This document shows positions 3,731 to 60,244 of a stretch of 64,000 nucleotides of DNA, in pieces (position 1 is the first letter of the stretch; each line of letters starts with the position of its first letter). The stretch comes from Bdellovibrionales bacterium. Its GTDB lineage: Bacteria > Bdellovibrionota > Bdellovibrionia > Bdellovibrionales > UBA1609. The stretch spans positions 326,512-390,511 of the forward strand of contig OZ251448.1 of NCBI GenBank assembly GCA_965242515.1, written 5' to 3'. A program made the position numbers and the translations under genes. The notes below the pieces were generated by a model. The model saw only the letters and a program-made list of their open reading frames with translations. It was not told where the DNA came from and did no database searches.

Positions 3731-4166
3731 TCTCCGTTTTAACTTATCCTGCTTAAAAATTTTAAAGTTTTACCTTCATACACTATTTTAATTTTTTTGC
3801 CAAGCCTAAATTGTAAAAATAGTGATGCATGAGTTAGGACATGCCCTAGGTTTCCCCGACCCTCCTCCCTCCCCTCCCCTGTCTACCTTCATCCAATCAA
3901 CCAAAAAAATTACCCCTTTGGCTTTATAAGTGTTAAATTGTAAAAAATGCTTTTGAGTGAGGTTTTTTCCCTTAAAAACAAGTGTCTATTTACTGCTACT
4001 TTAGGATAAATCGCGGAAGGAGAAGCTTTTAACACAGAGCATTAAGCTATTGATAGTAAAATATATTGTATTTGGGTATAATACATAAGGTATAGTACAA
4101 TTTATGAGTTGAGTGCAATTTTATGAAGCTCATTTATGAAACTGTAACTTTTGAGACTATAATTAT

Positions 4167-7230: not shown

Positions 7231-7288
7231 CACATGAAGGTAGAGCATCATGCTAGTGGTGCATCACAAACCCTCACCTTTTTGGGTG
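7231..7288 (-). repeat. family D repeat (reverse orientation) overlapping the 3' end of the HEAT-repeat CDS
   Basis: atgaaggtagagcatcatgctagtggtgcatcacaaaccctcacctttttgggtg resembles the D copy at 35735..35800 (ggatgaggttagggcatgcagtgcatcaaaagcaaccccctttgggggtg). Confidence 0.55.
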
Positions 7289-8013
7289 TTAATTTTCTTT
7301 AAAGCAGATAAGGCTATGGAGTGTAATCTAGGGTCAGGATCTTTAAGTAAAGAGACAAATAGTGCTTTGTCACCAGATATGGCAAAATCGGCTAGTGCGG
7401 ATGCGATATGGTGCCTAATCCAAAGGGAGGAGTTTTTATAAAAACTATCTTTAGCGTTAAGTTTTTCTATCAATCGCAGTTTATAGCGGGAGGCTTTTTG
7501 TCTGCGAATCAAGTCCACTGCAGCTGTGCGTACTACTAAGGATGGGTCATCTAGTAGTTTATCGGCGTACTGAAGAGCTAAACGAGTGTCTACTACTTCC
7601 ATAGCCAACAAAGTGGCATTGCGGACAAACCACACTGGATGACTAAATAACGAGCGTAACACAGCCCTTGCTCTATAAGGCTCCACACTATGAGCTAAAC
7701 TGATTAATGCATTCCAACGAGTGTGCATACTTTCTCTATCAGAAAGTGCAATCTTTTTAAGTAGATAGAATAATAAATTAGTATCATACTTTAAAAAAAC
7801 ATGTGTGCGATTTTCTAAAGGAAGGTTTAAAATCATTTTAATATCAGCCCTGTTTTGTTTGAATGCCCCGTAAGATGTTTTTAACGCCAATGAGTAAGAA
7901 TAATGACCACTTAGTAACATCATTATCAAAACCCCTACTAATAAAAATGCACGATATTTAACATTGTGTAGCATGGACTTTTGTATAGGATTTTTATAAA
8001 AAAATAGCAACAT
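7264..8013 (-). CDS. HEAT-repeat protein with N-terminal membrane anchor
   Basis: Repeated helical units of HEAT type (DPSLVVRTAAVDLI, DPDPRLHSIALSAL, HPVWFVRNATLLAM). Hydrophobic N-terminus. Confidence 0.6.
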   Translation of the reverse strand: MLLFFYKNPIQKSMLHNVKYRAFLLVGVLIMMLLSGHYSYSLALKTSYGAFKQNRADIKMILNLPLENRTHVFLKYDTNLLFYLLKKIALSDRESMHTRWNALISLAHSVEPYRARAVLRSLFSHPVWFVRNATLLAMEVVDTRLALQYADKLLDDPSLVVRTAAVDLIRRQKASRYKLRLIEKLNAKDSFYKNSSLWIRHHIASALADFAISGDKALFVSLLKDPDPRLHSIALSALKKINTQKGEGL

Positions 8014-8137
8014 ACAATGACTACATGCAACATGGTAATTATTCCTGCTTATGAGCAGGACTCTAGAAAGTCATTTTTAAAGTAAAAAAAGTAAGTCAAA
8101 ATCAGTGTACCGAATTTACTTGTAAAAAAATCTCATC

Positions 8138-8257
8138 GCAGAAGGAAAAACCATGCTCAAAACGAGTTCGGATTTGACGCAAAGTGATAAGCTAAAAGCT
8201 TAACGCTTTTGCGGTAAACCGCAGTCCAAAGATCTGGAGTGAGGTTTTTCTTTCTGC
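8138..8257 (+). repeat. family A palindromic MITE-like element (type copy)
   Basis: Terminal inverted repeats gcagaaggaaaaacc / ggtttttctttctgc. Conserved core aaaacgagttcggatttga. Central hairpin cgcaaagtg-ataagctaaaagctta-acgcttttgcg. Confidence 0.9.
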
Positions 8258-8416
8258 AAAAGAGCTTTTTGAATAATAAACTAGACTGGATTCTTGCTTT
8301 CTGCTTGCTTTTCTCACTCAAAAGTGTTCTAATCAAAAAAATGCTTGATGGTGCTGATTAATTAATTAATTAAAAGGCAATAAACAAAAAAGAGGTAAGA
8401 GAATGGTTGGTAGAAT

Positions 8417-9142
8417 ATGCAATTAAGTAACTTTAGGGCAATAAATAAAAAAATAAGAAACATTATTATTTTACTACTTGTAGTACTGATGTCGGCTTGT
8501 CATTTAGTGGGAAGGCGAAATAATAACAACAACTCTCAAAACAGACCTTCAGGGCAAACTCAAGCAGGGCAAGTGCCAGCTAACAACAGGCTTGCTCAGT
8601 CCAACCAAAATGCACAGGGTGGAGGGAATGTGCCATCTACTGTGGCAAATGGTTCGGGTGGTGGCAATCGTCGTCGGGTGATTAGCAGTCCTCATTGTTC
8701 TTGGGGTTTTGTAGGACCTAAAAAAATACATTGTTTAAACAACACTTATGTTTATGGTTCTGTTATATGTGGCATAGATTCTCACAAAGTATTTTGCCAA
8801 GAGCAATTTACCACTGATATCCGACTTTGCATTGCAGACAATGCACCCAACACTTTAACTTGCGAGCAACAAACAAGGGGGGTAAGAAGTGGTAGTTCCT
8901 CATCAGGTGGCAATCAACCAGAGGTATCAGAAATACCCGACCCTAGTTGTAATTGGGGTTTTGTAGGACCAAGGCGAGTGCAGTGTCGTGGTAAAACTTA
9001 TATATATTCTCCTTCTGTAATATGTAGTTCAAAAATTTACGATCAAATATTTTGCGAGGCACGGTTTATCTATAACATCAATCTTTGTAAGGGAGATAAC
9101 CAGCCGGACACCATAAATTGCTTTCATCAGAATTTTCCATAA
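8417..9142 (+). CDS. putative lipoprotein with two Cys-rich repeat domains
   Basis: Lipobox VLMSAC and a Gly/Asn/Gln-rich linker. Two ~60-aa repeats: (P)xCxWGFVGP(K/R)(K/R)(I/V)xC...TY(V/I)Y...VIC...FC...LC..DN.P(N/D)T(L/I).C. Confidence 0.6.
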   Translation: MQLSNFRAINKKIRNIIILLLVVLMSACHLVGRRNNNNNSQNRPSGQTQAGQVPANNRLAQSNQNAQGGGNVPSTVANGSGGGNRRRVISSPHCSWGFVGPKKIHCLNNTYVYGSVICGIDSHKVFCQEQFTTDIRLCIADNAPNTLTCEQQTRGVRSGSSSSGGNQPEVSEIPDPSCNWGFVGPRRVQCRGKTYIYSPSVICSSKIYDQIFCEARFIYNINLCKGDNQPDTINCFHQNFP

Positions 9143-11480: not shown

Positions 11481-11680
11481 CTCAATTTCTGCTCAAAAAT
11501 ACTCATTTTTGAGCAGGTTCTGTAGTATCTTCTCAAAAAAGTTGATTTTTGAGCAGGTTCTGTAGTATCTTCTCAAAAAGAGTGATTTTTGAGCAGGTTC
11601 TGTAGTATCTTCTCAAAAAAGTTGATTTTTGAGCAGGTTCTGTAGTATATTCTCAAAAAGAGTGATTTTTGAGCAGGTTT
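11481..11680 (+). repeat. 5 x 40-bp direct repeat array, each unit with an internal inverted repeat
   Basis: Period 40 bp exactly (11521, 11561, 11601, 11641). Unit: tctcaaaaa(a/g)(g/a)(t/g)tgatttttgagcaggttctgtagtatct. IR: ctcaaaaa-N5/6-tttttgag. Ends 45 bp before the fic start. Confidence 0.95.
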
Positions 11681-11724
11681 GAAGTAGCCTTGTTTAAGAA
11701 TTAACTTTATGAGAGTTATTTTAT

Positions 11725-12777
11725 ATGAAAGTTTTAATACCTTTACCTACAAGAGTTCAATTAGAAGCTCATAGTATTGTAAAAGAGCTAATATTAGCTC
11801 ATCGCTACTTAGCAGAGCTTAAAGGGATTATTCCTATTTTACCCAATGAAGATATTTTACTTTCTAATTTAGTTTTAAAAGAAGCACAAGATAGCTCCGC
11901 TATTGAAAATATTGTAACCACTCAAGATAGTTTATATAAATATCAACTGAATATGGACTCTAAACCTACAGCTGATAAAGAAGTGTATTGTTATAAAAAA
12001 GCTTTAAAATTAGCTTATGGACAAATTAAAAAACAAGGGGGTTTATCTCGCAATACTATTTTACACATTCAAAGCATTATAGAACCAAAGCGTTCGGGTT
12101 TTCGTAAAGTCCCTGGGACGGTTATTAAAAACACTGCTACCAATCAAGTTATTTATACTCCTCCATCACCTGAAAAAATACCATCTCTTATGGATCAATT
12201 AGAAAAATTTATTCATAATACAAATTCTATAGACCCTATTATAAAAATGGCTATCATTCATCATTATTTTGAGAGCATTCATCCTTTTTATGATGGCAAT
12301 GGTAGAACAGGTCGTATTATCAATATTCTTTATTTAATCCAAAACAATCTTTTAGACAGCCCTGTATTATATCTTAGTAAATATATTTTAAAATATCGAT
12401 CTAATTATTATAAGCTTTTACAAGAAGTAAGAAAAAAAGAATATTGGACTAATTGGATTATATATATATTACGATCAGTTTCTCATACAGCAAAAGACAC
12501 TATACAATTAATTAAACAAATTAATTCTTTATTTAAAGATTATAAATATAGTATTCGTAAAAATCATAAATTTTATTCTCATGATTTAATTAATAATATA
12601 TTTACTTATCCTTATACAAAAGTTAAGCTTTTAGAGAAAGAAATAAAAGTATCACGAGCAACAGCTACTCGTTATTTAGATTTATTGGCACAAGATGGTG
12701 TTTTAAAAAAACAAAATATAGGACGAAAAAGCTATTATGTTAATACTAAGTTACTTAATTTATTACAAAAATGTTAA
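11725..12777 (+). CDS. fic: Fic family protein (AMPylase-type) with N-terminal inhibitory motif and C-terminal wHTH
   Basis: Fic motif HPFYDGNGRTGR. N-terminal SSAIEN matches the (S/T)xxxE(G/N) auto-inhibition motif. The C-terminal region SRATATRYLDLLAQDGVLKK is wHTH-like. Confidence 0.85.
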   Translation: MKVLIPLPTRVQLEAHSIVKELILAHRYLAELKGIIPILPNEDILLSNLVLKEAQDSSAIENIVTTQDSLYKYQLNMDSKPTADKEVYCYKKALKLAYGQIKKQGGLSRNTILHIQSIIEPKRSGFRKVPGTVIKNTATNQVIYTPPSPEKIPSLMDQLEKFIHNTNSIDPIIKMAIIHHYFESIHPFYDGNGRTGRIINILYLIQNNLLDSPVLYLSKYILKYRSNYYKLLQEVRKKEYWTNWIIYILRSVSHTAKDTIQLIKQINSLFKDYKYSIRKNHKFYSHDLINNIFTYPYTKVKLLEKEIKVSRATATRYLDLLAQDGVLKKQNIGRKSYYVNTKLLNLLQKC

Positions 12778-12884: not shown

Positions 12885-12975
12885 CCTTTGGAAAAGGGAA
12901 TCCAAAATGTACCTTTTACGCGTACAATCCTGGATTCCTGCCTTCGCAGGAATGACCACTGACGAAAAAATATCA
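12885..12975 (+). repeat. family F repeat (cattcc..ggaatcc / ggattcctgccttcgcaggaatgac hairpin pair)
   Basis: Shares its flanks with 37451..37620. The internal 28-bp core (12904..12931) is inverted relative to that copy. Confidence 0.85.
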
Positions 12976-12987
12976 CTTTAAATTAAA

Positions 12988-13065
12988 GAGCGGGAGGGGA
13001 ATATTTTAAGGGTCCAAGCCCCCAAAGGGGGTTGCAGGCGTCCCTATAAAATCTTCCCCTCTCGC
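12988..13065 (+). repeat. family C hairpin repeat
   Basis: gagcgggaggggaatattttaagggtccaagcccccaaagggggttgcaggcgtccctataaaatcttcccctctcgc. The outer arms gggaggggaa / ttcccctc are complementary. Related copies at 25328, 30781, 35888, 37838, 29655(-) and 35637(-). Confidence 0.85.
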
Positions 13066-13128
13066 TTTGTGTTTGGTTTAATTTTATATGTTTTGAATTG
13101 TACGCTTTTACAAACTGTATATTATACT

Positions 13129-13260
13129 GACTTGATAAGACTTGATAAGACTTGATAAGACTTGATAAGACTTGATAAGACTTGATAAGACTTGATAAGA
13201 CTTAAACTACTCATATTAGCAATTATAAATATTTTTTCATAAATTGCAAGCTTTTGTTTA
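13129..13260 (+). repeat. family G: 7 x gacttgataa tandem repeat plus conserved ~55-bp tail
   Basis: gacttgataa x7 (13129..13198), then gacttaaactactcatattagcaattataaatattttttcataaattgcaag. A second copy with 9 units is at 19722. Confidence 0.95.
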
Positions 13261-13331
13261 AAAAACTACAATATAACTAGACTTTCTATCTGTTTTTTAC
13301 TTATACTACAATAAGAAAAATAACTTTAAGC

Positions 13332-14132
13332 TTACGGCAATAAACCACATGCCCTTAACTCTTCGTTAGATAATGTACTAGCATATTGCTTTGCTTGCTC
13401 TAAATCCTTCTTCGCATCACTTAACTCCAATAGGTCAGGACGCCTCTTTGCCGTTAATAAAATAGATACAAAATACTGAAACCGCTTAATGTCCCCATCA
13501 TGACCTGAACGCAAAAGCTCCGGCACAACATGCCCTTCAATGTGCCAAGGTCTTGTCCACTGCGGACACTCTAATAAATTCTGATTTTCAAAACTTTCAT
13601 AAGTGCTAGATAACTCATTACCCAAAACCCCCTTCACAAAACGACAAAGCGAATCTAATATCACTAAAACCGCCCCCTCACCACCTGTTAAAATGTAATT
13701 ACCAATGGATACCTCCTCATCCACTAACTCGTTTATAACCCTCTGATCAATGCCCCCATAACGACCACATATCAATGTATACTCCTTACCCTCCCTCGCC
13801 CACTGGCGAGCTAAACTGTGATCCCATAACCTCCCCTGCGGACTTAAATAACATACCAAACCTTTAGAAGGTAGTGCACTAATAGCCCTCTTCAAAGGCT
13901 CATACCTAAGTAACATCCCATCCCCACCACTAAAAGGTCTGTCATCTACCCTCCGATACTTGTCATCCGTAAAATCCCTAGGATTAGTAAAATCTACCTC
14001 CAATAACCCCGAACGAATAGCCCTCCCCACTACACCCACCCCCAACGGCGAGCGAAAATAATCCGGAAATAAACTCACAACATGTACTTTTAATTCGGTT
14101 TTTAAATTCGGTATAGTTACTTTTTTTATCAC
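13332..14132 (-). CDS. trmD: tRNA (guanine37-N1)-methyltransferase
   Basis: VVSLFPDYF, CGRYGGIDQRV and SIGNYILTGGE are TrmD blocks. The track start is a GTG lying inside the family E repeat, so the true start is uncertain. Confidence 0.9.
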   Translation of the reverse strand: MIKKVTIPNLKTELKVHVVSLFPDYFRSPLGVGVVGRAIRSGLLEVDFTNPRDFTDDKYRRVDDRPFSGGDGMLLRYEPLKRAISALPSKGLVCYLSPQGRLWDHSLARQWAREGKEYTLICGRYGGIDQRVINELVDEEVSIGNYILTGGEGAVLVILDSLCRFVKGVLGNELSSTYESFENQNLLECPQWTRPWHIEGHVVPELLRSGHDGDIKRFQYFVSILLTAKRRPDLLELSDAKKDLEQAKQYASTLSNEELRACGLLP

Positions 14133-14296
14133 TTAGTTACTTCCTCCCAATACAGTTACTCAGTATCAACCCTTATGCTCGATACTTTTTTGCTTTATTT
14201 TGTAAATTCAATATAGTTACTTTTTCTATCACTTAGTTGCTTCCCCCCAATACAGTTACTCAGTATCAACCCTTACGCTCGATACTTTTTTGCTTC
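14088..14296 (-). promoter_or_regulatory. family E leader-like repeat, two tandem ~100-bp units immediately 5' of trmD
   Basis: Units 14104..14196 and 14204..14296. Each reads aaattc(gg/aa)tatagttacttttt(t/c)tatcacttagtt(a/g)cttcc(t/c)cccaatacagttactcagtatcaaccctta(t/c)gctcgatacttttttgc. Confidence 0.8.
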
Positions 14297-14317
14297 AAAA
14301 ATAAATACTTCTTTTGA

Positions 14318-14433
14318 GTAGAAGGGGAAAAACCATGCTCAAAACGAGTTCGGATTTGATACAAAGTAGTAAGCTGAAAGCTTAACACTTTTGCGGTAAA
14401 CCGCAGTCCAAAGATTTTGAGCTCGGTTTTTTT
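14318..14433 (+). repeat. family A element
   Basis: gtagaaggggaaaaaccatgctcaaaacgagttcggatttgatacaaagtagtaagctgaaagcttaacacttttgcggtaaaccgc...ggttttttt. Confidence 0.9.
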
Positions 14434-14517
14434 ATTCATACAACCCACAAAAAAATCGCCCTTTCTCGCCGTGATTAATTACATACAAGACACTTTTTGT
14501 CGTCCCAAGCTTTTGAA

Positions 14518-15957
14518 CTATTTTTTTATCTTCTGTAAATAATACCTTAAAGCCTCCTTGACTTTTCCACTCAGCAGTAAAACCCCAATTAAATTAGGTA
14601 AAGCCATACTTAATATCATAAGATCACTAAATTGAATGGCATTTTTAGAAGTAGCAATAGAACTCATAAACACAATCACTAACAATATTATCTTGTAAAT
14701 AAAAGACTTAGAATCACTAAATAAAAACACAAAACACCTTTCCCCATAATATGCCCAAGATATAATAGTAGAAAAAGCAAACAAAAACACTGCCACACTT
14801 AATAATATAGGGAACCAACTAACCACCTCACCCATAGCTTGAGAAGTTAAAGCCGCACCCTTTTGATGACTCACTAAATCAGCATAATCCGGATTACCAA
14901 CCACACCCGTAATAATAATCACTAAAGCTGTCATTGTGCATATACATACGGTGTCAATAAAAGGCTCTAATAAGGCGACACTCCCCTCCTCCACCGGGTG
15001 CTTTACCTTAGCTACGGAATGAGCAATAGCAGCAGAACCTAAACCCGCCTCGTTAGAAAAAGCCGCCCTCTGCACTCCTGTAACCAACACACCAATAAAA
15101 CCACCATAAGCACTATTAACAGGAGAATAAAAAGCCCCTTCAATAATAGACCATAACGCTTGTGGAATATGATCGTAATGAGCAATTAAAATAAATAATG
15201 ACATTAAAATATACATGCCACACATAAAAGGCACAATTCGACTAGCCGTTACCGCTATACTCTTAATACCCTTCAATATCACACTGGATACTAATAAAGT
15301 CATAATAATACCATATATCCACCCATGCTTATCCATAGCTGGTATAATTTGTGCCACAGCATGCATCGACTGATTAACCTGAAAAGCCGTGCCACCTCCA
15401 AAAGACCCACCTATACACATTAAACAAAATGCAATAGCAAGTAACCTGCCTAAACCACTAAACCCTATCTCTGATAAACCTTTCTGCAAATAAACCATAG
15501 GACCACCCATAAGCTTTCCGTCTAACCTCTTTTCTCGATACATAACCCCTAAAGTGCATTCTGTAAATTTCACATTCATACCCAATAAACCCATAACAAT
15601 CATCCAAAAAGTAGCCCCCGGACCACCAACAATAATCGCTACCGCAACCCCCGCAATATTACCTAAACCAACGGTGGCCGATAAAGCCGTGCTTAAAGCT
15701 TTAAAATGACTGATCTCACCTAATTTCTCTGTTGAAGTAGCTTTTATAGATTGCACAACTAATTTAATAGCGTGAAAAAATAAACGAAAATTGACAAACC
15801 TCATTTTAATAGTGAAAATCACACTCGCTGTAAAAATAACAAACACTATGAGGGGACATTTAATACCATCTACAAAAAACAATACATCAAAGAAAAAAAC
15901 CTTGGTTATAACCGCATTCACTTGGCTGAAAATATTGTTGATAAATTGCTGAATCAT
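14518..15957 (-). CDS. alanine/glycine:cation symporter (AGCS family)
   Basis: 479 aa polytopic membrane protein with AGCS blocks LGNIAGVAVAIIVGGPGATFWM and FSNEAGLGSAAIAHS. Confidence 0.85.
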   Translation of the reverse strand: MIQQFINNIFSQVNAVITKVFFFDVLFFVDGIKCPLIVFVIFTASVIFTIKMRFVNFRLFFHAIKLVVQSIKATSTEKLGEISHFKALSTALSATVGLGNIAGVAVAIIVGGPGATFWMIVMGLLGMNVKFTECTLGVMYREKRLDGKLMGGPMVYLQKGLSEIGFSGLGRLLAIAFCLMCIGGSFGGGTAFQVNQSMHAVAQIIPAMDKHGWIYGIIMTLLVSSVILKGIKSIAVTASRIVPFMCGMYILMSLFILIAHYDHIPQALWSIIEGAFYSPVNSAYGGFIGVLVTGVQRAAFSNEAGLGSAAIAHSVAKVKHPVEEGSVALLEPFIDTVCICTMTALVIIITGVVGNPDYADLVSHQKGAALTSQAMGEVVSWFPILLSVAVFLFAFSTIISWAYYGERCFVFLFSDSKSFIYKIILLVIVFMSSIATSKNAIQFSDLMILSMALPNLIGVLLLSGKVKEALRYYLQKIKK

Positions 15958-16028: not shown

Positions 16029-19000
16029 TTATAAACTTAAACTTTTGCTGGATTCGTAAAGGGCTGACACAACAGCCACTGCTGCATCCCTTTGCGTAAT
16101 GCACGGCACACCCTGATCCAAACAACTCCGCCTAATGCTAAAACTAATCTCAATAGACCTTCTGCCCGATGTGGTGTTAATCACAAATGCCACCTTGCCA
16201 GAGCGAATGCGATCCACACAATGCGGACGCCCCTCATGCACCTTCTTAACCCTCAAACAAGCAATACCTGCATCCGTCAAACACCTAAAAGTACCACCCG
16301 TTGCCGATAAACTATAACCCATATCCACTAACTGACGAGCCACAGGTAATAATAATTTTTTGTCCTTATCCCGCAAAGATAAAAACACCTCGCCACTTTT
16401 AGGCACACTCAAACCCATGCCCGCTAACGCCTTTAATAATGCCACAGGATAGCTCTTGCTTCTACCCATAACCTCACCAATAGACTTCATCTCCGGACCT
16501 AAAATAGAATCCACATCCTCAAACTTCTTAAACGGAAATACCACCCCCTTAACACATACCTGCTCGCAAGCTTGCCAATTATACTGACTAGGAGTTATAT
16601 CTTTTGCCTTAAACTTTAACATAGCTTTGACCGCTAAATCTGCTAAGGGAATGCCTGTCGCCTTAGAAACATAAGGCATACTACGAGAACTCCGCGGATT
16701 AGCCTCCAATACATAAATGCAGTCATCCTTAATAGCTAACTGTAAATTTAAAAACCCTAAAATGTTTAAATTACGAGCAAGTAAAGCCGAACACTTTTCA
16801 ATCTTTTCCCATATCACTTGCTTTAACCTCTGCGGAGGTAACACCCCCATACTATCCCCACTATGTACACCTGTACCCTCAATATGCTCCACAATACCCC
16901 CTATTACTACCCAGTCAACACCACACACTAAATCCACATCCACCTCTAACCCTTCTAAAAATTGATCCATTAAACACGGATTTTCTTGAGATATAAAATG
17001 CTGATAGCGAGAAAAATAACTCCTTAACTCCGATTCATTTTCTATCAACTCCATGCGTCTCCCACCTAAAACATAACTCGGGCGACAAAGTAAAGGGTAG
17101 CCTACATACTTGCTGACTGTAATGGCAGACGATATATCAGTCGCCACCCCCGCCTTAGGTACCCTTAAACCTAAATCAGTACATAAAGATACAAACTGCC
17201 CTCTATCCTCTGCCCTGTCAATATCACGAACCTTCGTGCCGATTAACTTAAAACCCTCCTTCACCAAAGGTTTTGCTAAACCAATAGGGGTTTGCCCCCC
17301 TACTTGAGCCACAAAACCAATGGGTGATATAAACCTTAATACCTCTATCACATGCTCTTTGGTTAAAGGCTCAAAAAATAACACATCCGCTGTGTCATAA
17401 TCGGTAGAAACTGTCTCCGGATTGGAATTCACCATAACCGCCCTGTAACCTGCACGCTTTATAGAACGCACACTGCGAACACAAGAATAATCAAACTCAA
17501 TGCCCTGCCCTATCCTGTTCGGACCACTACCTAAAATCAATATAAAATTACCACTCTTAACCTGACCCTCCTGACTACCACTCGTAGTGTTTATATCTGT
17601 TGTAGTATTCCCTAGAGCTTCATCTGTAGATTTATCTGCAGATTTACCGATAGCTCCATCGATAATTCCACTATGCCAATAAGTGGAATAATAATAAGGC
17701 GTTGAAGAGGCAAACTCGCCGGCACAAGTGTCCACCTGATAAAAAGCAGGTACAATACTATAGCTATGCCTGAAACTTCGTATTTGCTCTTCAGACTTAT
17801 TACACCAGTGAGCTAACATAAAATCCGAAACCCCAAAACGCTTAGCCTGCCTTATAGATTCTTTAACACCCTCTTTTGTTTCACCTGTTATATCATCTTG
17901 TATAGATTCTTTTATATCTTTTTTTTGTATGTTTTGTGTTATATCACAAACTTTTTTGCTTTTTTGTGTATCTTTAAAGGGTAATTTTCCAGCCTGTGCT
18001 TTAATCTGTTTTTCTAACACAATAAGTTTATAAAATTGCTCTAAAAACCAAGGGTGGATTTGTGTCCACTCCTGCACTTGCTGAACCGAATGCCCCCTTC
18101 TAAAAGCCTCTAAAATACTATACAACCTGCGACTATTAGGGTAAGTTAAATTCTTTAAAGCAAAATCATCAACCCCTACCAATAAGTCATCGTGCTTTTC
18201 TAACGATACAACAGCCTTCATACAAGCCTCTAAAAACACTCTCCCTATACCCATAACCTCACCCACACTTTTCATCTGTGTGTTTAATACATCCTTAGAA
18301 CCTTCAAATTTCTCAAAGTCAAAACGAGGGATTTTAAACACCACATAATCCAAAGCAGGCTCGTAACAAGAAGGAGTAGCCCCACCTGTTATATCATTTC
18401 GAATCTCGTCCATAGTCAAACCCACAGCTACCAATGCTGCCACCTTCGCAATCGGAAACCCTGTTGCCTTACTGGCTAAAGCTGAAGAACGACTGACACG
18501 CGGATTCATCTCTATCACTAACCGCTTTCGTGTTTTGGGATGTACGGCAAACTGAATGTTGGCACCCCCTGTTTCTACCCCCACAGCTGAAATAATACGC
18601 CCTGCCTCATCACGCATAGCCTGATACTCCACATCCGATAATGTCTGCTGTGGAGAAACAGAACAACTATCCCCCGTATGCACACCACAAGGGTCCATAT
18701 TCTCCACCGAACATACCACTACAAAAGTCCCTTTACTATCACGCATAACCTCTAACTCAAACTCACACCAACCTAATAAACTCCTCTCCACTAATACCTC
18801 ACTTGTAGGCGACTCCCTTAACGCCTGTACTAACTTCCTCTCATACTCCTCAATAGAATGTGCTACCCCACTGCCCCCACCACCTAAAGTGTAATTAGGA
18901 CGAAGTACTAAGGGAAATGTCATACCACTTGCCACCTCCATACCCTGCTTAAAGCTCCTCACTAACTCACTTTCCGGATAGCCCGCCCCTATACTCTCTA

Positions 19001-19408: not shown

Positions 19409-19500
19409 TCTTAATTCGGTATAGTAGCTTGTGTGCATCACTTAGCTACTTTTACCCAGTATAGTTACCTCTTATCAACCTTTCAATAATAAACATCACT
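19409..19500 (-). promoter_or_regulatory. family E leader-like repeat immediately 5' of carB
   Basis: ttaattcggtatagtagcttgtgtgcatcacttagctacttttacccagtatagttacctcttatcaacc begins 3 nt beyond the carB ATG. Confidence 0.75.
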
Positions 19501-19543
19501 TTTAAATAGAATACCACTCAATAAATACTTTCTTTGCGGTTAT

Positions 19544-19657
19544 GAATGAAAAAACCATGCTCAAAACGAGTTCGGATTTGACCACAATGCAGTAGCCAAC
19601 GGCTAATGCGTTGTGGCAAACCGCGGAGTCCTAAGCTTTTGAACTCGGTTTTTTCAC
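19544..19657 (+). repeat. family A element
   Basis: Core cgagttcggatttga, hairpin ccacaatgc-agtagccaacggcta-atgcgttgtgg, then caaaccgc. Confidence 0.9.
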
Positions 19658-19721
19658 TTGCCACACATGATGTGGATATTTTTTGAAAGTCTGATTTTGT
19701 GAAAAACTATGTACTATACCT

Positions 19722-19862
19722 GACTTGATAAGACTTGATAAGACTTGATAAGACTTGATAAGACTTGATAAGACTTGATAAGACTTGATAAGACTTGATA
19801 AGACTTGATAAGACTTAAACTACTCATATTAGCAATTATAAATATTTTTTCATAAATTACAA
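19722..19862 (+). repeat. family G: 9 x gacttgataa tandem repeat plus conserved tail
   Basis: gacttgataa x9 (19722..19811), then gacttaaactactcatattagcaattataaatattttttcataaattacaac. Same orientation as 13129. Confidence 0.95.
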
Positions 19863-19915
19863 CTATTTTTTTAAAAAAAACCTAGACTTTTATATGCAAT
19901 TTAAGATATTTTTTT

Positions 19916-20983: not shown

Positions 20984-21202
20984 AACTTATTCCTCCCCTT
21001 TGTGTTTCATAATGTTACCCATAGTACATCTTAAAAAGATGCACCTGCATAAACTACATGCAAAATCGATTCCCACTTTAAATTAAAGAGTAGCAAAGAG
21101 GATATTTTGCAGGTCCAAGCACGCATAATGTGTTTTATTTGATGCAATCCTTACAATACCCCCCTACCTTCACCTAATCCATAGACTAATAAATGTACGC
21201 TT

Positions 21203-21315
21203 TAGAAGGGAAAAACCATGCTCAAAACGAGTTCGGATTTGACCACAATGCAGTAGCCAACGGCTAATGCGTTGTGGCAAACCGCATGTTTGAGCTTTTG
21301 AGTGAGGTTTTTCCC
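21203..21315 (+). repeat. family A element
   Basis: Central part identical to 19544. Termini gaagggaaaaacc / ggtttttccc. Confidence 0.9.
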
Positions 21316-21680
21316 TTAAACAAGCATGCTGTTACTAAACCTCCGGGGCATGGCAAACCGTGCAAACATAAGCTTTTGATGCTACGGTTTGAAGCAAAAA
21401 TAGCTATAACAACAATGCTGATAATAAAAGTGTCCACTTTTTGGACAAAATTATGTGCATATAATGCACACTTTATACACTTTTTTATAAAATATGAGTT
21501 GGTATGGGGTAAATAGTCCTCAAAGCACAAGGCTTTTTACTAAAGTTGATGTGAAGCGGTGTGTCGCACAGAAAAGTATGGAGTCCTAAGCTTTTGACTT
21601 GCTTTTCTCACTATAAAAGTTAGATTCCCAAGCTTTTGAGCTCTTTCTTAATATCTCGAAAAAAGTTACTTACTCTTTTT

Positions 21681-22614: not shown

Positions 22615-22690
22615 ATTCAACCCCCAAAAGGGGACGCTTTTGATGCTACTGCTTGCACGCCCTACCCTTCATCCAATCCACACACACCAT
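22615..22690 (+). repeat. family D repeat
   Basis: caacccccaaaaggggacgcttttgatgctactgcttgcacgccctacccttcatccaatccacac, followed by a truncated family A end (22696..22713). Confidence 0.7.
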
Positions 22691-22926
22691 TTCTAGGTGA
22701 GAAAACCATGCTCCCCACAAAGGAGGTTGAGATGTACCAAAAAGCCTTGTATATTAAAAGGTAGCAAGTCTTTTTCACCTCGAAAAGCTACCAGCTCTTT
22801 TTATTTTTTTACTACATAAACTAATGTAGCACACAATAACTATATAATACAACAATATTTTAAGGCTTAAGGGGGTTTTCACGATACTGCATAATCCCAT
22901 GCCTTAATACCAAAAGTTCTTTTTTA

Positions 22927-25262: not shown

Positions 25263-25327
25263 TGCCAGATGCAACTTTTTGGGGGAAAACCAAGCGGGAA
25301 GCATGTAGTGTTTTTATACTCAAAAAA

Positions 25328-25407
25328 GCAGGGAAGGGAATATTTTAAGGGTCCAAGCCCCCACAAAGGGGGTTATAGGTGTTCTACAAAAATCTTCCCC
25401 TTCCCGC
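25328..25407 (+). repeat. family C hairpin repeat
   Basis: gcagggaagggaatattttaagggtccaagcccccacaaagggggttataggtgttctacaaaaatcttccccttcccgc. Confidence 0.85.
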
Positions 25408-26167: not shown

Positions 26168-26232
26168 AATATCCTCCTTTTTGATAAACAATTTTAAAGT
26201 ATTCTTTTATTATTTGATTCTATTTTTTTTTA

Positions 26233-27704: not shown

Positions 27705-29489
27705 TTAAAGAGTGTTGTTTAAAACGATAGGGAGTAAGTCTTTTAAGTCTTGAGCCATGAGGGTATCTGCCACACCTTTTGTTCTTAAATGCTCGTCAGC
27801 TAATGCCCCATGGATAAAAGCCCCCATAGCCAAAGCCTCTACGGGGGATACTTTTCGTGCCATTAAAGAGGCTATGAAACCTGTAAGTACATCCCCAGTG
27901 CCAGCTTTGGCTAATGCACTGTTACCTGTGGGAATAACCCCTAACGAGTAAGGAAAATGCTCGCTCGTTTGCGTACTCGGTATGGCTATTACAGAATGAA
28001 AGCCTTTTAATAAAAGAGTGCAATTTAATTTTTGCATAGCTTGAGTGGCATAATAAGCTTTATTTTTATCTATTTCACTTCCCTTTAGTTTAAATAAGTA
28101 AGCCAGCTCCCCACTATGCGGGGTTACTACCCAGTGGGAAGGTAAAGGATAAAGTTTTTCTTTTACACAAACCCTAAAGGCTGAAGCATCTACTACCACC
28201 GGTAAATCTAATTTTTTTAATTTAAGTAACAGCTGTTTTGTGGACTCCCCTACTTCTAAACCCGGACCAATAGCCACAGCAGTTTTGTTTTTAAATAAGT
28301 CAGAGTCGTCTATATCTTGTGTCAATATATCCGGTGCTATCCTCTCACCCCTAAAATCCTGCTTTTTTACCCATGAAAAGAGATTCTGTTGCGTTATCTT
28401 TTTTGTTAATAGCATCTTAAATAGTGAGAAAACCAATTCAAAACGAGTTCGGATTTGACCACAATGCGGAAAGCCCAAAGGCTTAACGCTTTGTGGCAAA
28501 CCGCATGTCCGAGCTTTTGACTTGGTTTTCTCACTATTAAGCATTTTTTGTTTTTGCAAAGATGATGATGTGGCTAAAGTCACATAACCACAGCCCATAC
28601 GCAAAGCTGCCTCACTACATAACTGCCCTGCCCCCTCATAACCACAAGAGCCCGCAATTACCAACACATGCCCCTGCTGTGCTTTGTGACTGGCAATCTT
28701 TCGCTTTGGCATTCGCGAAGATACCCATTTTTTTGTTACCACACATGAGTTAACAACATTTTTTTGAGTTACTAAGTTAAAAGGGTAGCCAATAGATAAC
28801 ACTTTTACAAAACCCGTGTGCTTCGGACCCTCTTGCAAATAAAACCCAAGCTTTGTCAAACCATAAGTTAAAGTCATATTGGCACAAATACCAACCCCCA
28901 CACATAAGCCTGTGTCCACATTTAAACCCGATGGCACATCTAAAGAAACAACATAACTTGATAAACTATTAACATAGTTTATTAAATCAACATAGCCTCC
29001 CCTTACCTCACCCTTTAAGCCCACTCCAAATAAGGCGTCTATTATTAAAGAAGTTTCTTTAATTTCTTTTTTTATCTTATTAAAATCACTTAAATTATAA
29101 GTAGGTATATTTTGCAACAACAGCCTGTTTTTTTGCTTTTTTACTAAGTTAGATTTGATATCATCAGCTACAAATACTTGAACCTTAATACCTTGAGAAT
29201 GCAGGTGCCTTGCTACCACCAACCCATCCCCCCCGTTATGCCCCGGACCACAAAGAAGTACCACACTTTTTTTGCCTGCAATAAGGGTGCTAAAATACTG
29301 CAAAATACTATCTGCCGATTTTGCCCCTGCAAGCTCCATTAAAACTTCAGCCGATAAATTGTATTTTTCTTGTGCAATACAATCTATCGTAGCACTGGTT
29401 TGAGCATGAGCTACACCCTGTAACAACAAACCCGATTCAGAAATTAATTTATTATTTTCCACTCCCATTTTTTTATCTATTACCATCAA
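27705..29489 (-). CDS. nnr: bifunctional NAD(P)H-hydrate repair enzyme (epimerase/dehydratase) carrying an in-frame repeat insertion
   Basis: YjeF_N motif CGPGHNGGDG. C-terminal kinase-like domain GHVLVIAGSCGYEGAG...AVAIGPGL...GTGDVLTG. 594 aa, roughly 80 aa longer than usual. Confidence 0.85.
   Translation of the reverse strand: MMVIDKKMGVENNKLISESGLLLQGVAHAQTSATIDCIAQEKYNLSAEVLMELAGAKSADSILQYFSTLIAGKKSVVLLCGPGHNGGDGLVVARHLHSQGIKVQVFVADDIKSNLVKKQKNRLLLQNIPTYNLSDFNKIKKEIKETSLIIDALFGVGLKGEVRGGYVDLINYVNSLSSYVVSLDVPSGLNVDTGLCVGVGICANMTLTYGLTKLGFYLQEGPKHTGFVKVLSIGYPFNLVTQKNVVNSCVVTKKWVSSRMPKRKIASHKAQQGHVLVIAGSCGYEGAGQLCSEAALRMGCGYVTLATSSSLQKQKMLNSEKTKSKARTCGLPQSVKPLGFPHCGQIRTRFELVFSLFKMLLTKKITQQNLFSWVKKQDFRGERIAPDILTQDIDDSDLFKNKTAVAIGPGLEVGESTKQLLLKLKKLDLPVVVDASAFRVCVKEKLYPLPSHWVVTPHSGELAYLFKLKGSEIDKNKAYYATQAMQKLNCTLLLKGFHSVIAIPSTQTSEHFPYSLGVIPTGNSALAKAGTGDVLTGFIASLMARKVSPVEALAMGAFIHGALADEHLRTKGVADTLMAQDLKDLLPIVLNNTL
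28420..28538 (+). repeat. family A element inside the nnr coding sequence
   Basis: aatagtgagaaaaccaattcaaaacgagttcggatttgaccacaatgcggaaagcccaaaggcttaacgctttgtggcaaaccgcatgtccgagcttttgacttggttttctcactatt. Translated in the nnr frame it gives ...KTKSKARTCGLPQSVKPLGFPHCGQIRTRFELVFSLF... Confidence 0.9.
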
Positions 29490-29584
29490 TATAATGTCAC
29501 TATATAATAAAAATCTTCTTTATGTAAGGGAAAAAACTTAAGTTCAAAACCTGTATCAGATTTACTTGTAAAAAGAGCTTCATC

Positions 29585-29717
29585 GTAGAGGGAAAAACCT
29601 CACTCCAGAGCTTAAAACTCAACATTTTGCCACAATATATTAGTATTTAATAAACCGGGAGGGGCAATTTTTTTGTGAGACGCTACGCTTGGACTCAAAA
29701 AAAATTCCCCTCCCGGC
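29585..29717 (-). repeat. chimeric repeat: family A half-element joined to a family C hairpin
   Basis: gtagagggaaaaacctcactccagagcttaaaactcaacattttgccacaat, then linker attagtatttaataaa, then ccgggaggggcaattttttt...aaaaaaaattcccctcccgg. Confidence 0.75.
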
Positions 29718-30850: not shown

Positions 30851-30899
30851 AAGGTGAGATTTTACTTCCTCTTTCTGCTGGGTTTTCTCACTTGTGTCT

Positions 30900-32640: not shown

Positions 32641-32667
32641 CAATGCCATTCAATAAAATGTAACTAT

Positions 32668-32787
32668 TTAAATAGTGAGAAAACCAATTCAAAACGAGTT
32701 CGGATTTAACGCAAAGTAGTAGCCGTAGGCTAACACTTTGCGGTAAACCGCATGTCCGAGCTTTTGACTTGGTTTTCTCACTTTAAA
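32668..32787 (+). repeat. family A element
   Basis: Termini aatagtgagaaaacc / ggttttctcac. Hairpin acgcaaagt-agtagccgtaggcta-acactttgcg. Confidence 0.9.
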
Positions 32788-32815
32788 AGCTATAGTCCCA
32801 AACAGTTTTTTTACT

Positions 32816-32900: not shown

Positions 32901-33030
32901 AATTCAACAATAAACTCTTTCTATGTACACAAGTGAAAAAACATGCTCAAAACGAGTATCGCACCCAAAGGGTGTTCATTATTATCATAATACTACTATA
33001 TAATTTCTCAAAGTGATAATTACATGCTTT

Positions 33031-33142
33031 AAAGGGGAAAAACCATGCTCAAAACGAGTTCGGATTTAACGCAAAGTAGTAGCCGTAGGCTAACACTTTG
33101 CGGTAAACCGCATGTTTGAGCTTTTGAGCTCGGTTTTTCCCC
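33031..33142 (+). repeat. family A element
   Basis: Central part identical to 32668. Termini aaaggggaaaaacc / cggtttttcccc. Confidence 0.9.
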
Positions 33143-33295
33143 GAAAGAAGTTTAACTATCTCACAAAAATCTTCCCCCTCTCACTTCGTGCCTCAAAAAG
33201 CAAAAAGCTTCCCCCTTGGTTTTCTCACTTTAAAAGCTATAGTCCCAAGCTTTTGAATTTTAAGTTTTCTCACTTATACCTATTAAAATAGCTAC

Positions 33296-35358: not shown

Positions 35359-35569
35359 TTTTTTACTCCTTACTTAAAAGTTTGCCTCATTATCCCCTTA
35401 TCCCCACACACCTTATACTCCTATCTTACACTTTCTTTCTCATCTTCACCTTCTTTTTTAGCTTTTTTTTGAACAGGTTGATACACTTATCGGGTTATAA
35501 AACCCATTAGTTAAATTATAATATAATACCCCCTATTTTGCAACCATACTTTTCATCCAAACTTATGAA

Positions 35570-35821
35570 GTGAGAAAACCAAGTGGGGAGCTTAAAACTC
35601 TGCAGTTTGCCACCACAATACATTAGTTCTTATTTATTTACAGGTCGGGAGGGGCAGGTCCTTAAAGACACACTTCGCTTGGACTCTTACGGACCTCCCC
35701 TCCCGCCCTTTACTTTTAATTTGCATTTATTAGTATATGGATTGGATGAGGTTAGGGCATGCAGTGCATCAAAAGCAACCCCCTTTGGGGGTGAACTCGT
35801 TTTGAGCATGGTTTTCTCACC
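35570..35821 (-). repeat. family A element whose centre is replaced by family C and family D modules (nested/chimeric)
   Basis: A left end gtgagaaaaccaagtggggagcttaaaactctgcagtttgccac...; C hairpin gtcgggaggggcagg...cctcccctcccgcc; D ggattggatgaggttagggcatgcagtgcatcaaaagcaaccccctttgggggtg; A right end aactcgttttgagcatggttttctcacc. Confidence 0.8.
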
Positions 35822-35887
35822 TAAAATACATATTTTGTGAATAAAACTAATACTTATCATTAATAGTAATTTTTAAAATATAAAAAG

Positions 35888-35962: not shown

Positions 35963-36077
35963 TCTAACATAAGAAGTGTTATCGCAGGCATAAGTTTTTG
36001 AACTTGATTTTCTCACTTCATAAAAGGTGCTTTCTGGATTTTTAGATATGGATTGAATTCATAAGCTGAAAGAGTAT

Positions 36078-37620: not shown

Positions 37621-37646
37621 AGGCTAATGAAAATATATACTTTACA

Positions 37647-37761
37647 GGTGAGCAAACCTCACTCCAGAGCTTAAAACTCTGCAGTTTGCCACAATGCGGT
37701 AAGCTGAAAGCTTAACGCATTGTATCAAATCCGAACTCGTTTTGAGCATGGTTTTCTCCCC
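37647..37761 (-). repeat. family A element (reverse orientation)
   Basis: ggtgagcaaacctcactccagagc...ccacaatgcggtaagctgaaagcttaacgcattgtatcaaatccgaactcgttttgagcatggttttctcccc. Confidence 0.9.
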
Positions 37762-37837
37762 TAGAATATGTATATCTTGTTAAGATAACCAATGATTCTT
37801 AAATTAACATAAATATATTTATTATATTATACAAAAA

Positions 37838-37899: not shown

Positions 37900-38004
37900 T
37901 TGTAAGTAATTAATTTGGTAATTGGGTGATGCATGCAAGTAATAGCATTAGGGTAGAGAATGGTTGGGAGGCATTGCCCATAAAACAACTGATAGGCACG
38001 AGTT

Positions 38005-50599: not shown

Positions 50600-50748
50600 A
50601 TCCTAAATAGTAAAAACCACCACCATAAGCTTTGTCAATAGTAACAAGCCCTAAGGCTTGAAATTTTGCACAAATACACTCATTGTGCGAAAGCTTAGAA
50701 TGACGGCTGACGACAAAAATAACGGCTGACGAAGAAATATATGCTTTA

Positions 50749-50866
50749 GAGGGGAGCAAACTCAATTCAAAACGAGTTCGGATTTGATACAATGCAGTAG
50801 CCTTTGGCTAATGCGTTGTGGCAAACCGCAGAGTTTTAAGCTTTTGAGCTTTAAGTTTGCTCACCC
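50749..50866 (+). repeat. family A element
   Basis: gaggggagcaaactcaattcaaaacgagttcggatttgatacaatgcagtagcctttggctaatgcgttgtggcaaaccgc...gtttgctcaccc. Preceded by a family F tail (50700..50745). Confidence 0.9.
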
Positions 50867-50990
50867 GTAAAAGATGCAAAATTCGTTTTGCAAAAATCTT
50901 CCCATGCTACTCTAAAATAAGCAGTGTTATTGCAAAGTATTGAACTCTGGAGTGAGGTTTGCTCACCTGCGAAAACAAGTGGAAAGTAAG

Positions 50991-60060: not shown

Positions 60061-60086
60061 ACTCTACCTCCATCCAATCCATATAC
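60032..60086 (+). repeat. family D repeat overlapping the ABC ATPase start
   Basis: gtgtgtttattttgatgcactacttgcatactctacctccatccaatccatatac. Compare 62165..62225. Confidence 0.75.
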
Positions 60087-60094
60087 TACTTCTA

Positions 60095-60207
60095 GGTGAG
60101 AAAACCATACTCAAAAGCTTAGGACTCCGCGTTTTTCTACAAAGCGTTAAGCTTTCAGCTTACCGCATTGTATCAAATCCGAACTCGTTTTGAGCATGGT
60201 TTTCTCA
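60095..60207 (-). repeat. family A element (reverse orientation)
   Basis: ggtgagaaaaccatactcaaaagcttaggactccgcg...gcgttaagctttcagcttaccgcattgtatcaaatccgaactcgttttgagcatggttttctcac. Confidence 0.9.
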
Positions 60208-60244
60208 CTTACAAAAGGTGGTGTTTTAATGCCACTTTTTTTGT

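Follow-up and report, generated by a model that had tools for sequence, protein, structure and literature searches.

Rickettsia palindromic elements (RPEs), reportedly described by Ogata et al. in 2000 and 2002, are palindromic repeats of 100-150 bp in small, AT-rich, host-associated genomes, with no known transposase and no clear target duplication. The enterobacterial repetitive intergenic consensus sequences or intergenic repeat units (ERIC/IRU) of Enterobacteriaceae and Vibrio are imperfect palindromes of about 127 bp, which are conserved across genera and over their full length, lie in transcribed regions in either orientation, and have size variants that arose from insertions at fixed sites; their compensatory substitutions have been interpreted as selection on secondary structure. 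We know of no explanation of the mechanism by which RPEs and ERICs spread. Classical miniature inverted-repeat transposable elements (MITEs), such as Correia/NEMIS, RUP and Nezha, are bounded by conserved terminal repeats and by a target duplication of fixed length (TA in Correia and RUP), and have related autonomous insertion sequences (ISs). The hairpins formed by doublets of repetitive extragenic palindromes (REPs), known as REPINs, show compensatory changes (PMC3116915); TnpA(REP) acts on folded single-stranded DNA (ssDNA) with a bulge and a conserved motif (PMC8266576), and the working model for REPs holds that a folded single strand is recognised through a bulge together with a conserved motif (PMC3116915, PMC8266576). 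Here we analyzed a dense family of hairpin-forming repeats in a 64,000-nucleotide stretch of a Bdellovibrionales genome (contig OZ251448.1, positions 326,512 to 390,511; hereafter, the window). By analogy, the behaviour of this hairpin element resembles that of REPINs, RPEs and ERICs, and its recognition logic resembles that of attC-type folded sites; it is best explained, if by no means securely, as a non-autonomous mobile repeat that depends on its folded structure.

The coordinates of the full copies were taken from a covariance-model (CM) search, and a profile search (nhmmer) of the window (35.9% G+C, about 78% coding) recovered the same ten copies (Table 1), confirming the places where the initial annotation had put them. 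The truncated or chimeric pieces that it had listed (about nine) are also real and are left ends, right ends or halves of the element. The repeat measures 115-140 bp, and its palindrome reaches farther out than annotated, spanning some 135-145 bp. The window contains ten exact matches to the 18-nt core CAAAACGAGTTCGGATTT, whereas dinucleotide-preserving shuffles predict 0.06; all copies but one are intergenic (nine of ten; P = 1.4e-5 under random placement). A core common to all copies had been proposed, and this holds for its left part; the right core is not uniform (for example, AAAAACGC in the copy annotated at 60095 and AAACTGC in that at 37647), being canonical in four copies (those starting at 21197, 28413, 32664 and 33024) and degenerate in the other six, in which the C-G pair of a short helix is broken. 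Likewise, the termini thought to be shared by all copies vary (GGAAAAACC, GAGAAAACC, GAGCAAACT).

Every window copy folds as one long hairpin (z = -4.0 to -10.4 relative to shuffles with RNA folding; z = -4.4 to -10.9 for both strands of five copies with DNA parameters). Its outermost part is an arm of 20-55 bp, P1, which ends in AAAA/UUUU. Inside P1 follow a 3-nt bulge YGA on the 5' side and a helix of 6-7 bp, GUUCGGA/UYYGAR(N), and further in come a 7-nt bulge (A/C)CGCAUG on the 3' side, the short helix UUUG/CAAA and a conserved A.G mismatch. The innermost part is a variable apical hairpin, a near-perfect palindrome around a loop which in 92 of 103 distinct hairpins consists of three nucleotides of arbitrary sequence. 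Invariant columns were read from an alignment of 46 sequences, and the CM was built from 46 copies with the proposed structure; RNAalifold, run on a plain MAFFT alignment, gave only a partial structure with the arms out of register, and the CM was used in its place.

Two parts are conserved in all genomes: a left core, A-rich and then YGAGTTCGGATTTGA, and a right core, GGCAAA(A/C)CGCATGTYYGAR and then YTTTT. Together they amount to about 45 bases and are asymmetric, in that left core GAGTTCGGATTTGA and right core GGCAAAMCGCATGTYYGAG are not reverse complements; each copy also has two CAAAACG boxes about 54 nt apart, and the core variants across the family include AAAACGAG, AAAAGCGAG, AAAAGTGAG and CAAACGAG. 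This core is kept across genomes whose NnrD proteins are only about 50% identical. The outer arms and the apical hairpin change completely and stay self-complementary; conservation is lowest at the termini and highest in the interior. The outer arms differ by genome; for example, they are GGGGAGAAAACCATGCTC / GAGCATGGTTTTCTCCCC in the window, AAAAGCTTGTAAGATACAAAGCTC and its complement in the metagenome-assembled genome (MAG) CAR1_bin_21, and TTCAGGAGAGAATAGGGGGC and its complement in CBDETO. Within a genome one arm sequence is common to most copies, and unlike arms also coexist within one genome (IP30b, RHO2_34, APA_46, CBDETO and CAR1_21).

The stem variants from which paired changes had been deduced (AAGCT/AGCTT, AAGCC/GGCTT, TAGCC/GGCTA, CGCAAAGT/ACTTTGCG and CCACAATGC/GCGTTGTGG) read as described, and the outer stem is paired as well, although each of the quoted outer pairs contains one or two mismatches. 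We measured the covariation against shuffled partners and against partners slid by 1-3 columns. Among the ten window copies, 85.2% of the cells form standard pairs (77.8% after shuffling), both sides have changed in 20 of 50 pairs, a number reached by 1 of 500 shuffles, and the covariation score is 0.316, compared with 0.174 for shuffled and 0.06-0.15 for slid partners. In a CM alignment of 117 copies from 12 genomes, which was fitted to the structure and thereby favours it, 91.7% of the cells are in standard pairs (70.4% with the 3' partners shuffled), both sides have changed in 44 of 50 pairs, and the score of 0.536 compares with 0.179 after shuffling (reached in none of 500 shuffles) and 0.08-0.15 for slid partners. 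A check that depends less on alignment compared the left and right arms over the 20 outermost pairs, within and across arm classes. Of 25 classes found, about 20 are truly different; nearly every class has 19-20 of the 20 positions paired, compared with 9.1 of 20 when a left arm is set against the right arm of another class. The preservation of pairing despite sequence change is thus strongly supported, significantly so within the window and overwhelmingly with the relatives, and the earlier reservation that about two subfamilies leave few independent events is removed by the roughly 20 different arm classes.

The two strands are not equivalent. The same copies score 67-110 bits against the model on the sense strand and 13-31 bits on the antisense strand. 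The 5' strand of the GUUCGGA helix never varies, and its 3' strand does so only between C and T and between G and A (variants include TCTGAG, 51; TCCGAG, 28; TTTGAG, 25); these variants make G.U or G.T pairs on the sense strand and A.C mismatches on the other. Folding energy is lower on the sense strand in 139 of 160 distinct copies and in all 11 genomes compared, with a mean difference of -5.6 kcal/mol. The outer arms have a weaker bias of the same kind (111 G.T-type against 67 A.C-type mismatches), which is absent from the window. Because of this asymmetry in score, wobble pairs and folding energy, a folded single strand, RNA or ssDNA, is favoured over a duplex site or a symmetric cruciform. 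Selection had been suggested to act on a folded RNA or a DNA cruciform; the folded strand is supported, and the symmetric double-stranded cruciform is not.

A core-pattern scan of one genome for each of 185,579 species found matches in Bdellovibrionales/Oligoflexia MAGs only, apart from two isolated ones without support from the model. A match in Eubacteriales (L007), limited to the 22-nt left core, and one in Cyclobacterium (L230), without a CM match, were rejected as chance. The element was confirmed in 15 genomes including that of the window, and a sixteenth, REEB465, matched the pattern only. These MAGs hold hundreds of copies in all, and even related genomes differ in number, some having a few copies and others well over 100 (the counts for CAR1_bin_21, CBDETO and APA_bin_46 are lower bounds). 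With 1.4-2.1 Mb, the host genomes are small, and they are AT-rich; the names of many of these MAGs suggest sponge metagenomes. The contig that holds the window is 1.76 Mb long. Proteins of the window are at best about 50% identical to database entries, and their named homologues come from Bdellovibrionales. An initial guess at a cyanobacterial origin, prompted by the many repeats, was rejected on the basis of the core-pattern scan and these homologues. No match was found in the viral contigs, plasmids and phages searched, and an origin from any of these was rejected. A known RNA family was also rejected: at the gathering threshold, Rfam finds only three tRNAs in the window, and a search in E-value mode adds, for two copies, no more than generic miRNA-precursor hairpins that score far under the thresholds of those families. 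K-turn, T-loop, group II domain V, retron and hammerhead motifs were compared by eye and rejected, as their registers do not fit. A limited literature search found no description of the hairpin repeat either, which suggests that it was previously undescribed.

Recent spread is indicated by 44 pairs of copies that are at least 95% identical and have unrelated flanks. Such near-identical pairs give clean unit ends, TCAG...CTGAAGAA (114 nt) in CBDETO and GGAATTATATACATAAC...GTTATGTATATAATTCC (202 nt) in one CAR1_bin_21 subfamily, and these cleanly bounded copies have no target-site duplication. Nor was one found beyond chance among all copies compared, with ends inferred without empty sites: 93 copies have no direct repeat at their ends, 39 have one of 1 nt, 14 one of 2 nt and 3 one of 3 nt. 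No arm pair lacking the core was found in any genome, and insertion of the core into pre-existing palindromes was accordingly rejected. In the main CAR1_bin_21 subfamily (54 distinct copies), substitution amounts to 8.7% at paired and 11.7% at unpaired sites, and of the rare variants 64 break pairs, 21 give G.U and 22 are compensated; change after insertion is mostly neutral decay, with a compensated minority. Copies also form tandem arrays, with periods of about 128 nt in CAR1_bin_21, 142 nt in OZ220490, 154 nt in CBDATD and 238-258 nt in CBDETO, and mosaics with other short repeats. With respect to neighbouring genes the copies are oriented almost at random (between co-directional genes, 38 opposite and 29 same; 22 convergent and 22 divergent contexts). 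The same pair of genes, for proteins of 344 and 357 aa, has a copy 78-238 nt upstream in CAR1_bin_21, RHO2_bin_34 and OZ220490; the arms of these copies differ and the orientation is flipped in one genome, so they may be a retained ancient copy, an insertion hotspot or a coincidence at high copy density. A general conservation of position across genomes was rejected, as the few coincidences are expected at such copy density (OZ220490 is rich in copies).

Among the described systems, REPINs and their transposases (REP-associated tyrosine transposases, RAYTs) share with this family high copy number, intergenic position, hairpin formation, non-autonomy, restriction to a clade, long persistence, compensatory changes in the hairpin, and clusters and mosaics. 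A REPIN, however, consists of two 20-40-nt REPs arranged as a symmetric doublet, with GTAG ahead of each, whereas here one asymmetric core of about 45 nt lies between free arms; no RAYT was seen in the window, there is no GTAG-like motif among the invariant columns of the 46-sequence alignment, and both the unequal scores of the two strands and the dissimilar core halves differ from a symmetric doublet. RPEs are alike in size, in their small, AT-rich, host-associated genomes, in having no known transposase and no clear target duplication, in their intergenic position and in inserting in frame at permissive sites, as the palindrome at 28413-28552 does within an open reading frame (ORF); they differ in belonging to an unrelated taxon, in-frame copies are the exception here, and a conserved core with free arms is not known from RPEs. 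With ERIC the element shares the form of an imperfect palindrome conserved across genera, occurrence in either orientation and size variants due to insertions at fixed internal sites; conservation here is confined, however, to internal loops and short helices, with complete turnover of the arms. With attC sites the element would share recognition by shape, with little conservation of the stems, conserved unpaired bases, a variable apex and strand-specific folding, but there is no integrase among the window ORFs, no cassette array and no R/L box consensus in the arms, and the copies are scattered in both orientations among housekeeping genes (carB, ftsH, mur, tRNA synthetases). The resemblance to attC concerns recognition, as an analogy, and gives no ground for membership. 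MITEs are similar in size, inverted-repeat ends, abundance, intergenic position and a possible effect on neighbouring genes; conserved terminal repeats, target duplication and an autonomous partner were not found here in the loci searched, and the arms, of about 20 unrelated classes with several in one genome, are not conserved across the family.

Because of its copy number, clade restriction, covariation, strand asymmetry, recent spread, decay, nested insertion (see below) and absence of target duplication, we consider it probable, with much room for doubt, that the element is a non-autonomous, structure-dependent mobile repeat mobilised via a folded single strand by a trans-acting enzyme. 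One strand would fold into one long imperfect hairpin, in which the roughly 45 conserved asymmetric bases would be the recognition module of the enzyme, vertically inherited in the Bdellovibrionales clade, and the arms and the apical stem would need only to pair. Lineages that keep the hairpin would go on multiplying, which would give rise to the covariation, and inserted copies would then decay. We lean towards ssDNA rather than RNA as the folded strand because the apical loops are 3 nt of arbitrary sequence and orientation follows no rule with respect to transcription; the enzyme might be HUH/RAYT-like, recombinase-like or of nuclease type. More tentatively, the core could be the handle of a hitherto unknown, vertically inherited partnership of the clade, in which a dedicated protein would read the folded ssDNA or RNA by the bulges YGA, A.G and (A/C)CGCAUG and would copy or use it, or the element could be a new structured non-coding RNA class with tens to hundreds of copies per genome. 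With similar reserve, and as part of the same reading, we suggest a REPIN-RAYT-like logic acting on a different recognition module, perhaps with a different enzyme class.

Several observations speak against mobilisation by such an enzyme. A Pfam scan of the window ORFs recovered no Y1/HUH transposase, reverse transcriptase or integrase; no gene family in the loci compared has copies on both sides with any consistency between genomes; and the two multi-copy PD-(D/E)XK genes that lie near copies (see below) are not specific partners. Replication-coupled ssDNA of the IS200/IS605 type would predict an orientation bias, and there is no clear bias with GC skew or gene strand: the 2.08-Mb CBDETO contig has only a weak, non-significant trend with GC skew, on which ground an IS200/IS605-type strand bias was rejected, although copies could be inverted at their sites if the arms recombined. 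The 22 rare compensated pairs within one subfamily hint at a pressure or mechanism that keeps pairs in place, the copy upstream of the shared operon in three genomes may have been retained as useful, and the source genome is represented only once in the collections.

Some of these points would be expected if the element were a functional structured RNA motif, namely a cis element in transcripts (a site of processing or stability, or an insulator or terminator to which a clade-specific protein binds) or a small RNA gene family kept by host selection, which we regard as rather unlikely. Conserved internal loops between freely covarying helices are found in many RNA families, and the one-sided, wobble-preserving variation of the GUUCGGA helix, the better folding of the sense strand, the persistence of the core across deep divergence together with the copy before the same operon in three genomes, and the compensated rare variants all fit such a function. 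The initial suggestion of selection on a functional RNA is nevertheless weakened by the mobile-repeat behaviour of the family, by its near-random orientation relative to genes, and by private substitutions which mostly break pairs and occur at similar rates at paired and unpaired sites. Furthermore, the flanks and arms differ with no conserved promoter or terminator, one copy lies antisense within a coding sequence, the arbitrary 3-nt loops are not stable RNA tetraloops, Rfam has no match, and copy number changes from few to more than 100 between related genomes.

Pairing could also be kept by a mechanism instead of by selection, if intrastrand templated repair or gene conversion copied one arm onto the other. 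The near-perfect apical palindrome around its minimal centre, the double changes even in rare variants, and the homogeneity of arms within a genome, which could reflect conversion, are in keeping with this. Such copying would, however, erase the fixed bulges of the asymmetric core, most rare variants stand uncorrected (64 broken against 22 compensated), and G.T-type pairs are tolerated preferentially on one strand. We therefore take it to be improbable as a full explanation; it could contribute, without explaining the spread or the conservation of the core.

An ordinary MITE, that is, an internally deleted derivative of a DDE-type IS whose arms are terminal inverted repeats bound by the transposase, would fit the size, palindromic ends, high copy number, intergenic position and truncated copies, as well as the single arm sequence common to most copies of a genome. 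We find it slightly less credible still, since conservation is concentrated in the interior and weakest at the termini, one genome can hold completely different arms, the two halves of the core do not form an inverted pair, target duplications do not exceed chance, and no autonomous element or pair of half-elements bracketing a gene was found in about 1.3 Mb of fetched loci. Least of all do we expect a double-stranded feature used by the chromosome (a protein site or an extruded cruciform for nucleoid, replication or recombination), for although the mixed orientations, the paired CAAAACG boxes and the folding of both strands with DNA parameters suit an orientation-independent function, the sense strand folds consistently better with one-sided wobble variation, the variable segments need not pair if only the boxes are bound, and the copies decay, are freely interrupted and vary in number by orders of magnitude between related genomes.

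To return to the mobile repeat, nested insertion is seen at two scales. Hairpin repeats of 22-24 nt are inserted at fixed points inside the element. In the window this mini-hairpin, GGATTCCTGCCTTCGCAGGAATGAC, stands at 12933-12957, 30732-30756, 37542-37566 and 60261-60285 and adjoins 18-nt tandem arrays at 37555-37608 and 60256-60399. The forms GATTCCCGCTTTCGCGGGAATGAC and CCCCGCTTTCGCGGGGACAAGC occur in relatives, inserted in the element after GAGTTCGGAT or in the apical stem (L016 2145-2295, L018 6799-6947, L106 4917-5072, L061 6202-6355, L112 6823-6976 and L047 7110-7262); they recall the very small dispersed repeats described in Nostoc. Hairpins of the form CACCC(CC)AAAGGG(GG)TG, similar to the terminator-like ones described below, abut three truncated elements (22714, 32958 and 35764) at the same or nearly the same internal point. 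In a further variant of about 200 nt, common to RHO3_bin_33 and CBDETO, a conserved domain of about 75 nt, GAAAGCYTCACCTTATRATAAA...CCTCTTAGTYTGAAAYAGGG..., takes the place of the apical hairpin (L060 1663-1861, L076 2111-2307 and L067 2615-2815).

At the larger scale, an IS of about 1.5 kb and of the IS110/IS1111 type cuts the right core at one exact point in at least five copies in CBDETO, with the junction ...CGCATGTYTGA / TAAATGGAAAAAG...CTTTTTCCATAGGTGA / GNCTTTTGA, where the slashes mark the borders of the insertion. Its product is a 335-aa protein in which Pfam recognises DEDD_Tnp_IS110 and Transposase_20; the IS has subterminal inverted repeats of 10 bp and a 3' non-coding end of about 400 nt, and Rfam gave no bridge-RNA match; the ISs in two of the interrupted copies are 100% identical. 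The element is a specific target of this IS110-family IS, as REPs are specific targets of IS621 and IS1397.

The in-frame copy (28413-28552) is read on the minus strand within the gene for the bifunctional NnrE/NnrD protein, whose ORF is continuous through it. It occupies a variable loop of the carbohydrate-kinase domain, with Pfam domains flanking the insert. Most of 13 aligned NnrE/NnrD homologues have no insert at this position, and three have shorter, unrelated ones. Such copies are exceptional: one of ten in the window, and none convincing in relatives.

As for neighbouring genes, the window contains housekeeping genes (carB, ftsH, mur ligases, tRNA synthetases and pilMNO) and genes for repeat- or effector-type proteins (ankyrin; Fic, 11725-12777; HEAT, 7264-8013; pentapeptide, 25547-26191), which suggest a host-associated lifestyle. 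A 99-nt tandem periodicity at 23971-25262 (repeat family D1, 24049-25358) corresponds to two adjacent ankyrin-repeat genes with 33-aa repeats. Two PD-(D/E)XK genes were considered as partners of the element. The 218-aa Hjc-like protein has weak matches to the AHJR-like/YraN families and to Hjc resolvase, and paralogues at L055, L048, L089, L112 and L115-L193. Its gene often has a copy 55-160 nt downstream, but only three of 79 such loci hold the element, and members of the family stand at more than 450 places in species genomes, among them Spirochaetia, Thermoanaerobaculia, Gammaproteobacteria, Bacteroidia, Ca. Thiosymbion and Ca. Multivorans MAGs. The family seems to be mobile or expanding in these mostly uncultured MAGs; its spread across other groups, with the low count of loci, speaks against it as a specific partner. 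The Rpn/YhgA-like Transposase_31 gene (19916-20983, minus strand) has directly oriented copies on both sides, at 214 and 242 nt, and a 10-nt tandem array between its 3' end and one of them. A CBDETO paralogue (L079) is alike, with an 18-nt array, and other paralogues lack this layout; a partnership is unsupported, the geometry being inconsistent in CBDETO. The 10-nt unit is common to two distant arrays, 13109-13285 and 19712-19898 (96% match).

The window holds other repeats as well. A second, unrelated long palindromic family, GGGGAATATTTTAAGGGTCCAAGCCCCCAAAGGGGGTTGCAGGCGTCCC..., which the CM picked up as weak generic-hairpin matches (repeat families D17, I5, I12, I13 and I18), occurs at 12980-13082, 25323-25405, 29641-29741, 30769-30862, 35628-35722, 35881-35963 and 37844-37914. 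Repeat units of about 100 nt with three GTAACT boxes about 20 nt apart (on the minus strand GTAACTGTATTGG, GTAACTAAGTGAT and GTAACTATACCGA) lie at 14088-14290, 19410-19499, 32391-32936 and 33277-33366, often beside the hairpin element and just upstream of genes, and could be operators or iteron-like binding sites. G+C-rich, terminator-like hairpins, CCCCCAWAGGGGG with a T run and then a conserved box GACCCACTCCTTGC, are found at 32126-32185, 32222-32281, 60024-60083, 62066-62125 and 62162-62221. Finally, a 40-nt tandem repeat with palindromic units (TCTCAAAAA..TTTTTGAGCAGG) extends over 11488-11687.

Table 1. Copies and fragments of the hairpin element and associated features (window positions unless a locus is named; z, folding score relative to shuffles)
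Feature	Position	Strand	Sequence and evidence	Context
Full copy	8132..8270	+	variant right core CCGCAGTCCAAAG; CM 73.9 bits; fold z -6.1	intergenic, divergent genes 7264-8013 (-) and 8417-9142 (+) on either side
Full copy	14314..14452	+	variant right core; CM 66.8 bits; fold z -4.0	66 nt downstream of Na/Ala symporter gene 14518-15957 (-)
Full copy	19536..19674	+	CM 78.5 bits	between carB (16029-19406, -) and Rpn/Transposase_31 gene (19916-20983, -); adjoins 10-nt tandem array 19712-19898
Full copy	21197..21333	+	canonical core CGCATGTTTGAGC; CM 104.7 bits; fold z -8.8	214 nt upstream of Rpn/Transposase_31 gene
Full copy	28413..28552	+	canonical core; CM 110.5 bits	in frame inside NnrE/NnrD gene 27705-29489 (-)
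Full copy	32664..32799	+	canonical core; CM 100.1 bits; arm class common to 28413; repeat family D7	downstream of ftsH; 360 nt from copy 33024
Full copy	33024..33159	+	canonical core; CM 99.7 bits	202 nt downstream of ftsH (33361-35358, -)
Full copy	37631..37770	-	variant right core AAACTGCAGAG; CM 81.8 bits	adjoins GGATTCCTGCC..GCAGGAATGAC mini-hairpin and 18-nt tandem array
Full copy	50742..50881	+	own arm class GGGGAGCAAACT / AGTTTGCTCACC; CM 81.0 bits	110 nt downstream of class I tRNA synthetase gene (50991-53708, -)
Full copy	60079..60218	-	CM 85.6 bits; fold z -10.1	19 nt from ABC-transporter gene 59311-60060 (-)
Split copy	35560..35829	-	left half 35764-35829, right half 35560-35615 (nhmmer half matches, sequence)	insertion of ~150 nt between halves; junction after AAAACGAGTT, leading into CACCCCCAAAGGGGGTG hairpin repeat
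Right-half fragment	29579..29643	-	nhmmer model positions 73-135, E 1.4e-6	
Left-end fragment	32931..32957	+	nhmmer, sequence	ends after AAAACGAG, then CACCCAAAGGGTG hairpin
Left-terminal fragment	22690..22713	+	TTTCTAGGTGAGAAAACCATGCTC (read from sequence)	
Right-terminal fragment	3949..3981	+	nhmmer, sequence	
Two right-end fragments in succession	21582..21648	+	repeat family D18; nhmmer, sequence	
Two right-end fragments in succession	33205..33278	+	repeat family D18; nhmmer, sequence	
Right-terminal fragment	35983..36024	+	nhmmer	55 nt downstream of 218-aa PD-(D/E)XK gene
Right-terminal fragment	50939..50974	+	nhmmer, sequence	
Hjc-like protein gene	36078-36734	-	218 aa; N-terminal coiled-coil of short repeats, C-terminal PD-(D/E)XK (D...EVK)	
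IS110-family element	L038 1535-3040 (CBDETO010000005.1)			same junction in L106 (~3300), L067 (~7383), L079 (~2257) and L089
Copies upstream of 344-aa + 357-aa gene pair	L003 67-193; L006 3840-3966; L087 4147-4278			

Hairpin repeats with compensatory changes have been described before, as in REPINs, and the novelty of the present family lies in an asymmetric internal module as opposed to the ends. The conservation of its core across at least 15 species-level genomes, together with some 20 independent arm sequences, which show that outside the core pairing alone matters, sets the part that is recognised apart from the parts that have to fold. The core thus offers a precise bait for the partner protein, and the CM allows a census in symbiont metagenomes. 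How palindromic repeats without a transposase spread is a long-standing question that is directly testable with this hairpin family. Should the element prove instead to be a functional RNA, it would represent a new class of multi-copy RNA. The layering of repeats, with mini-hairpins, mosaics and an IS110-family IS that targets the core, makes these genomes a natural system for the study of repeat ecology during genome reduction.

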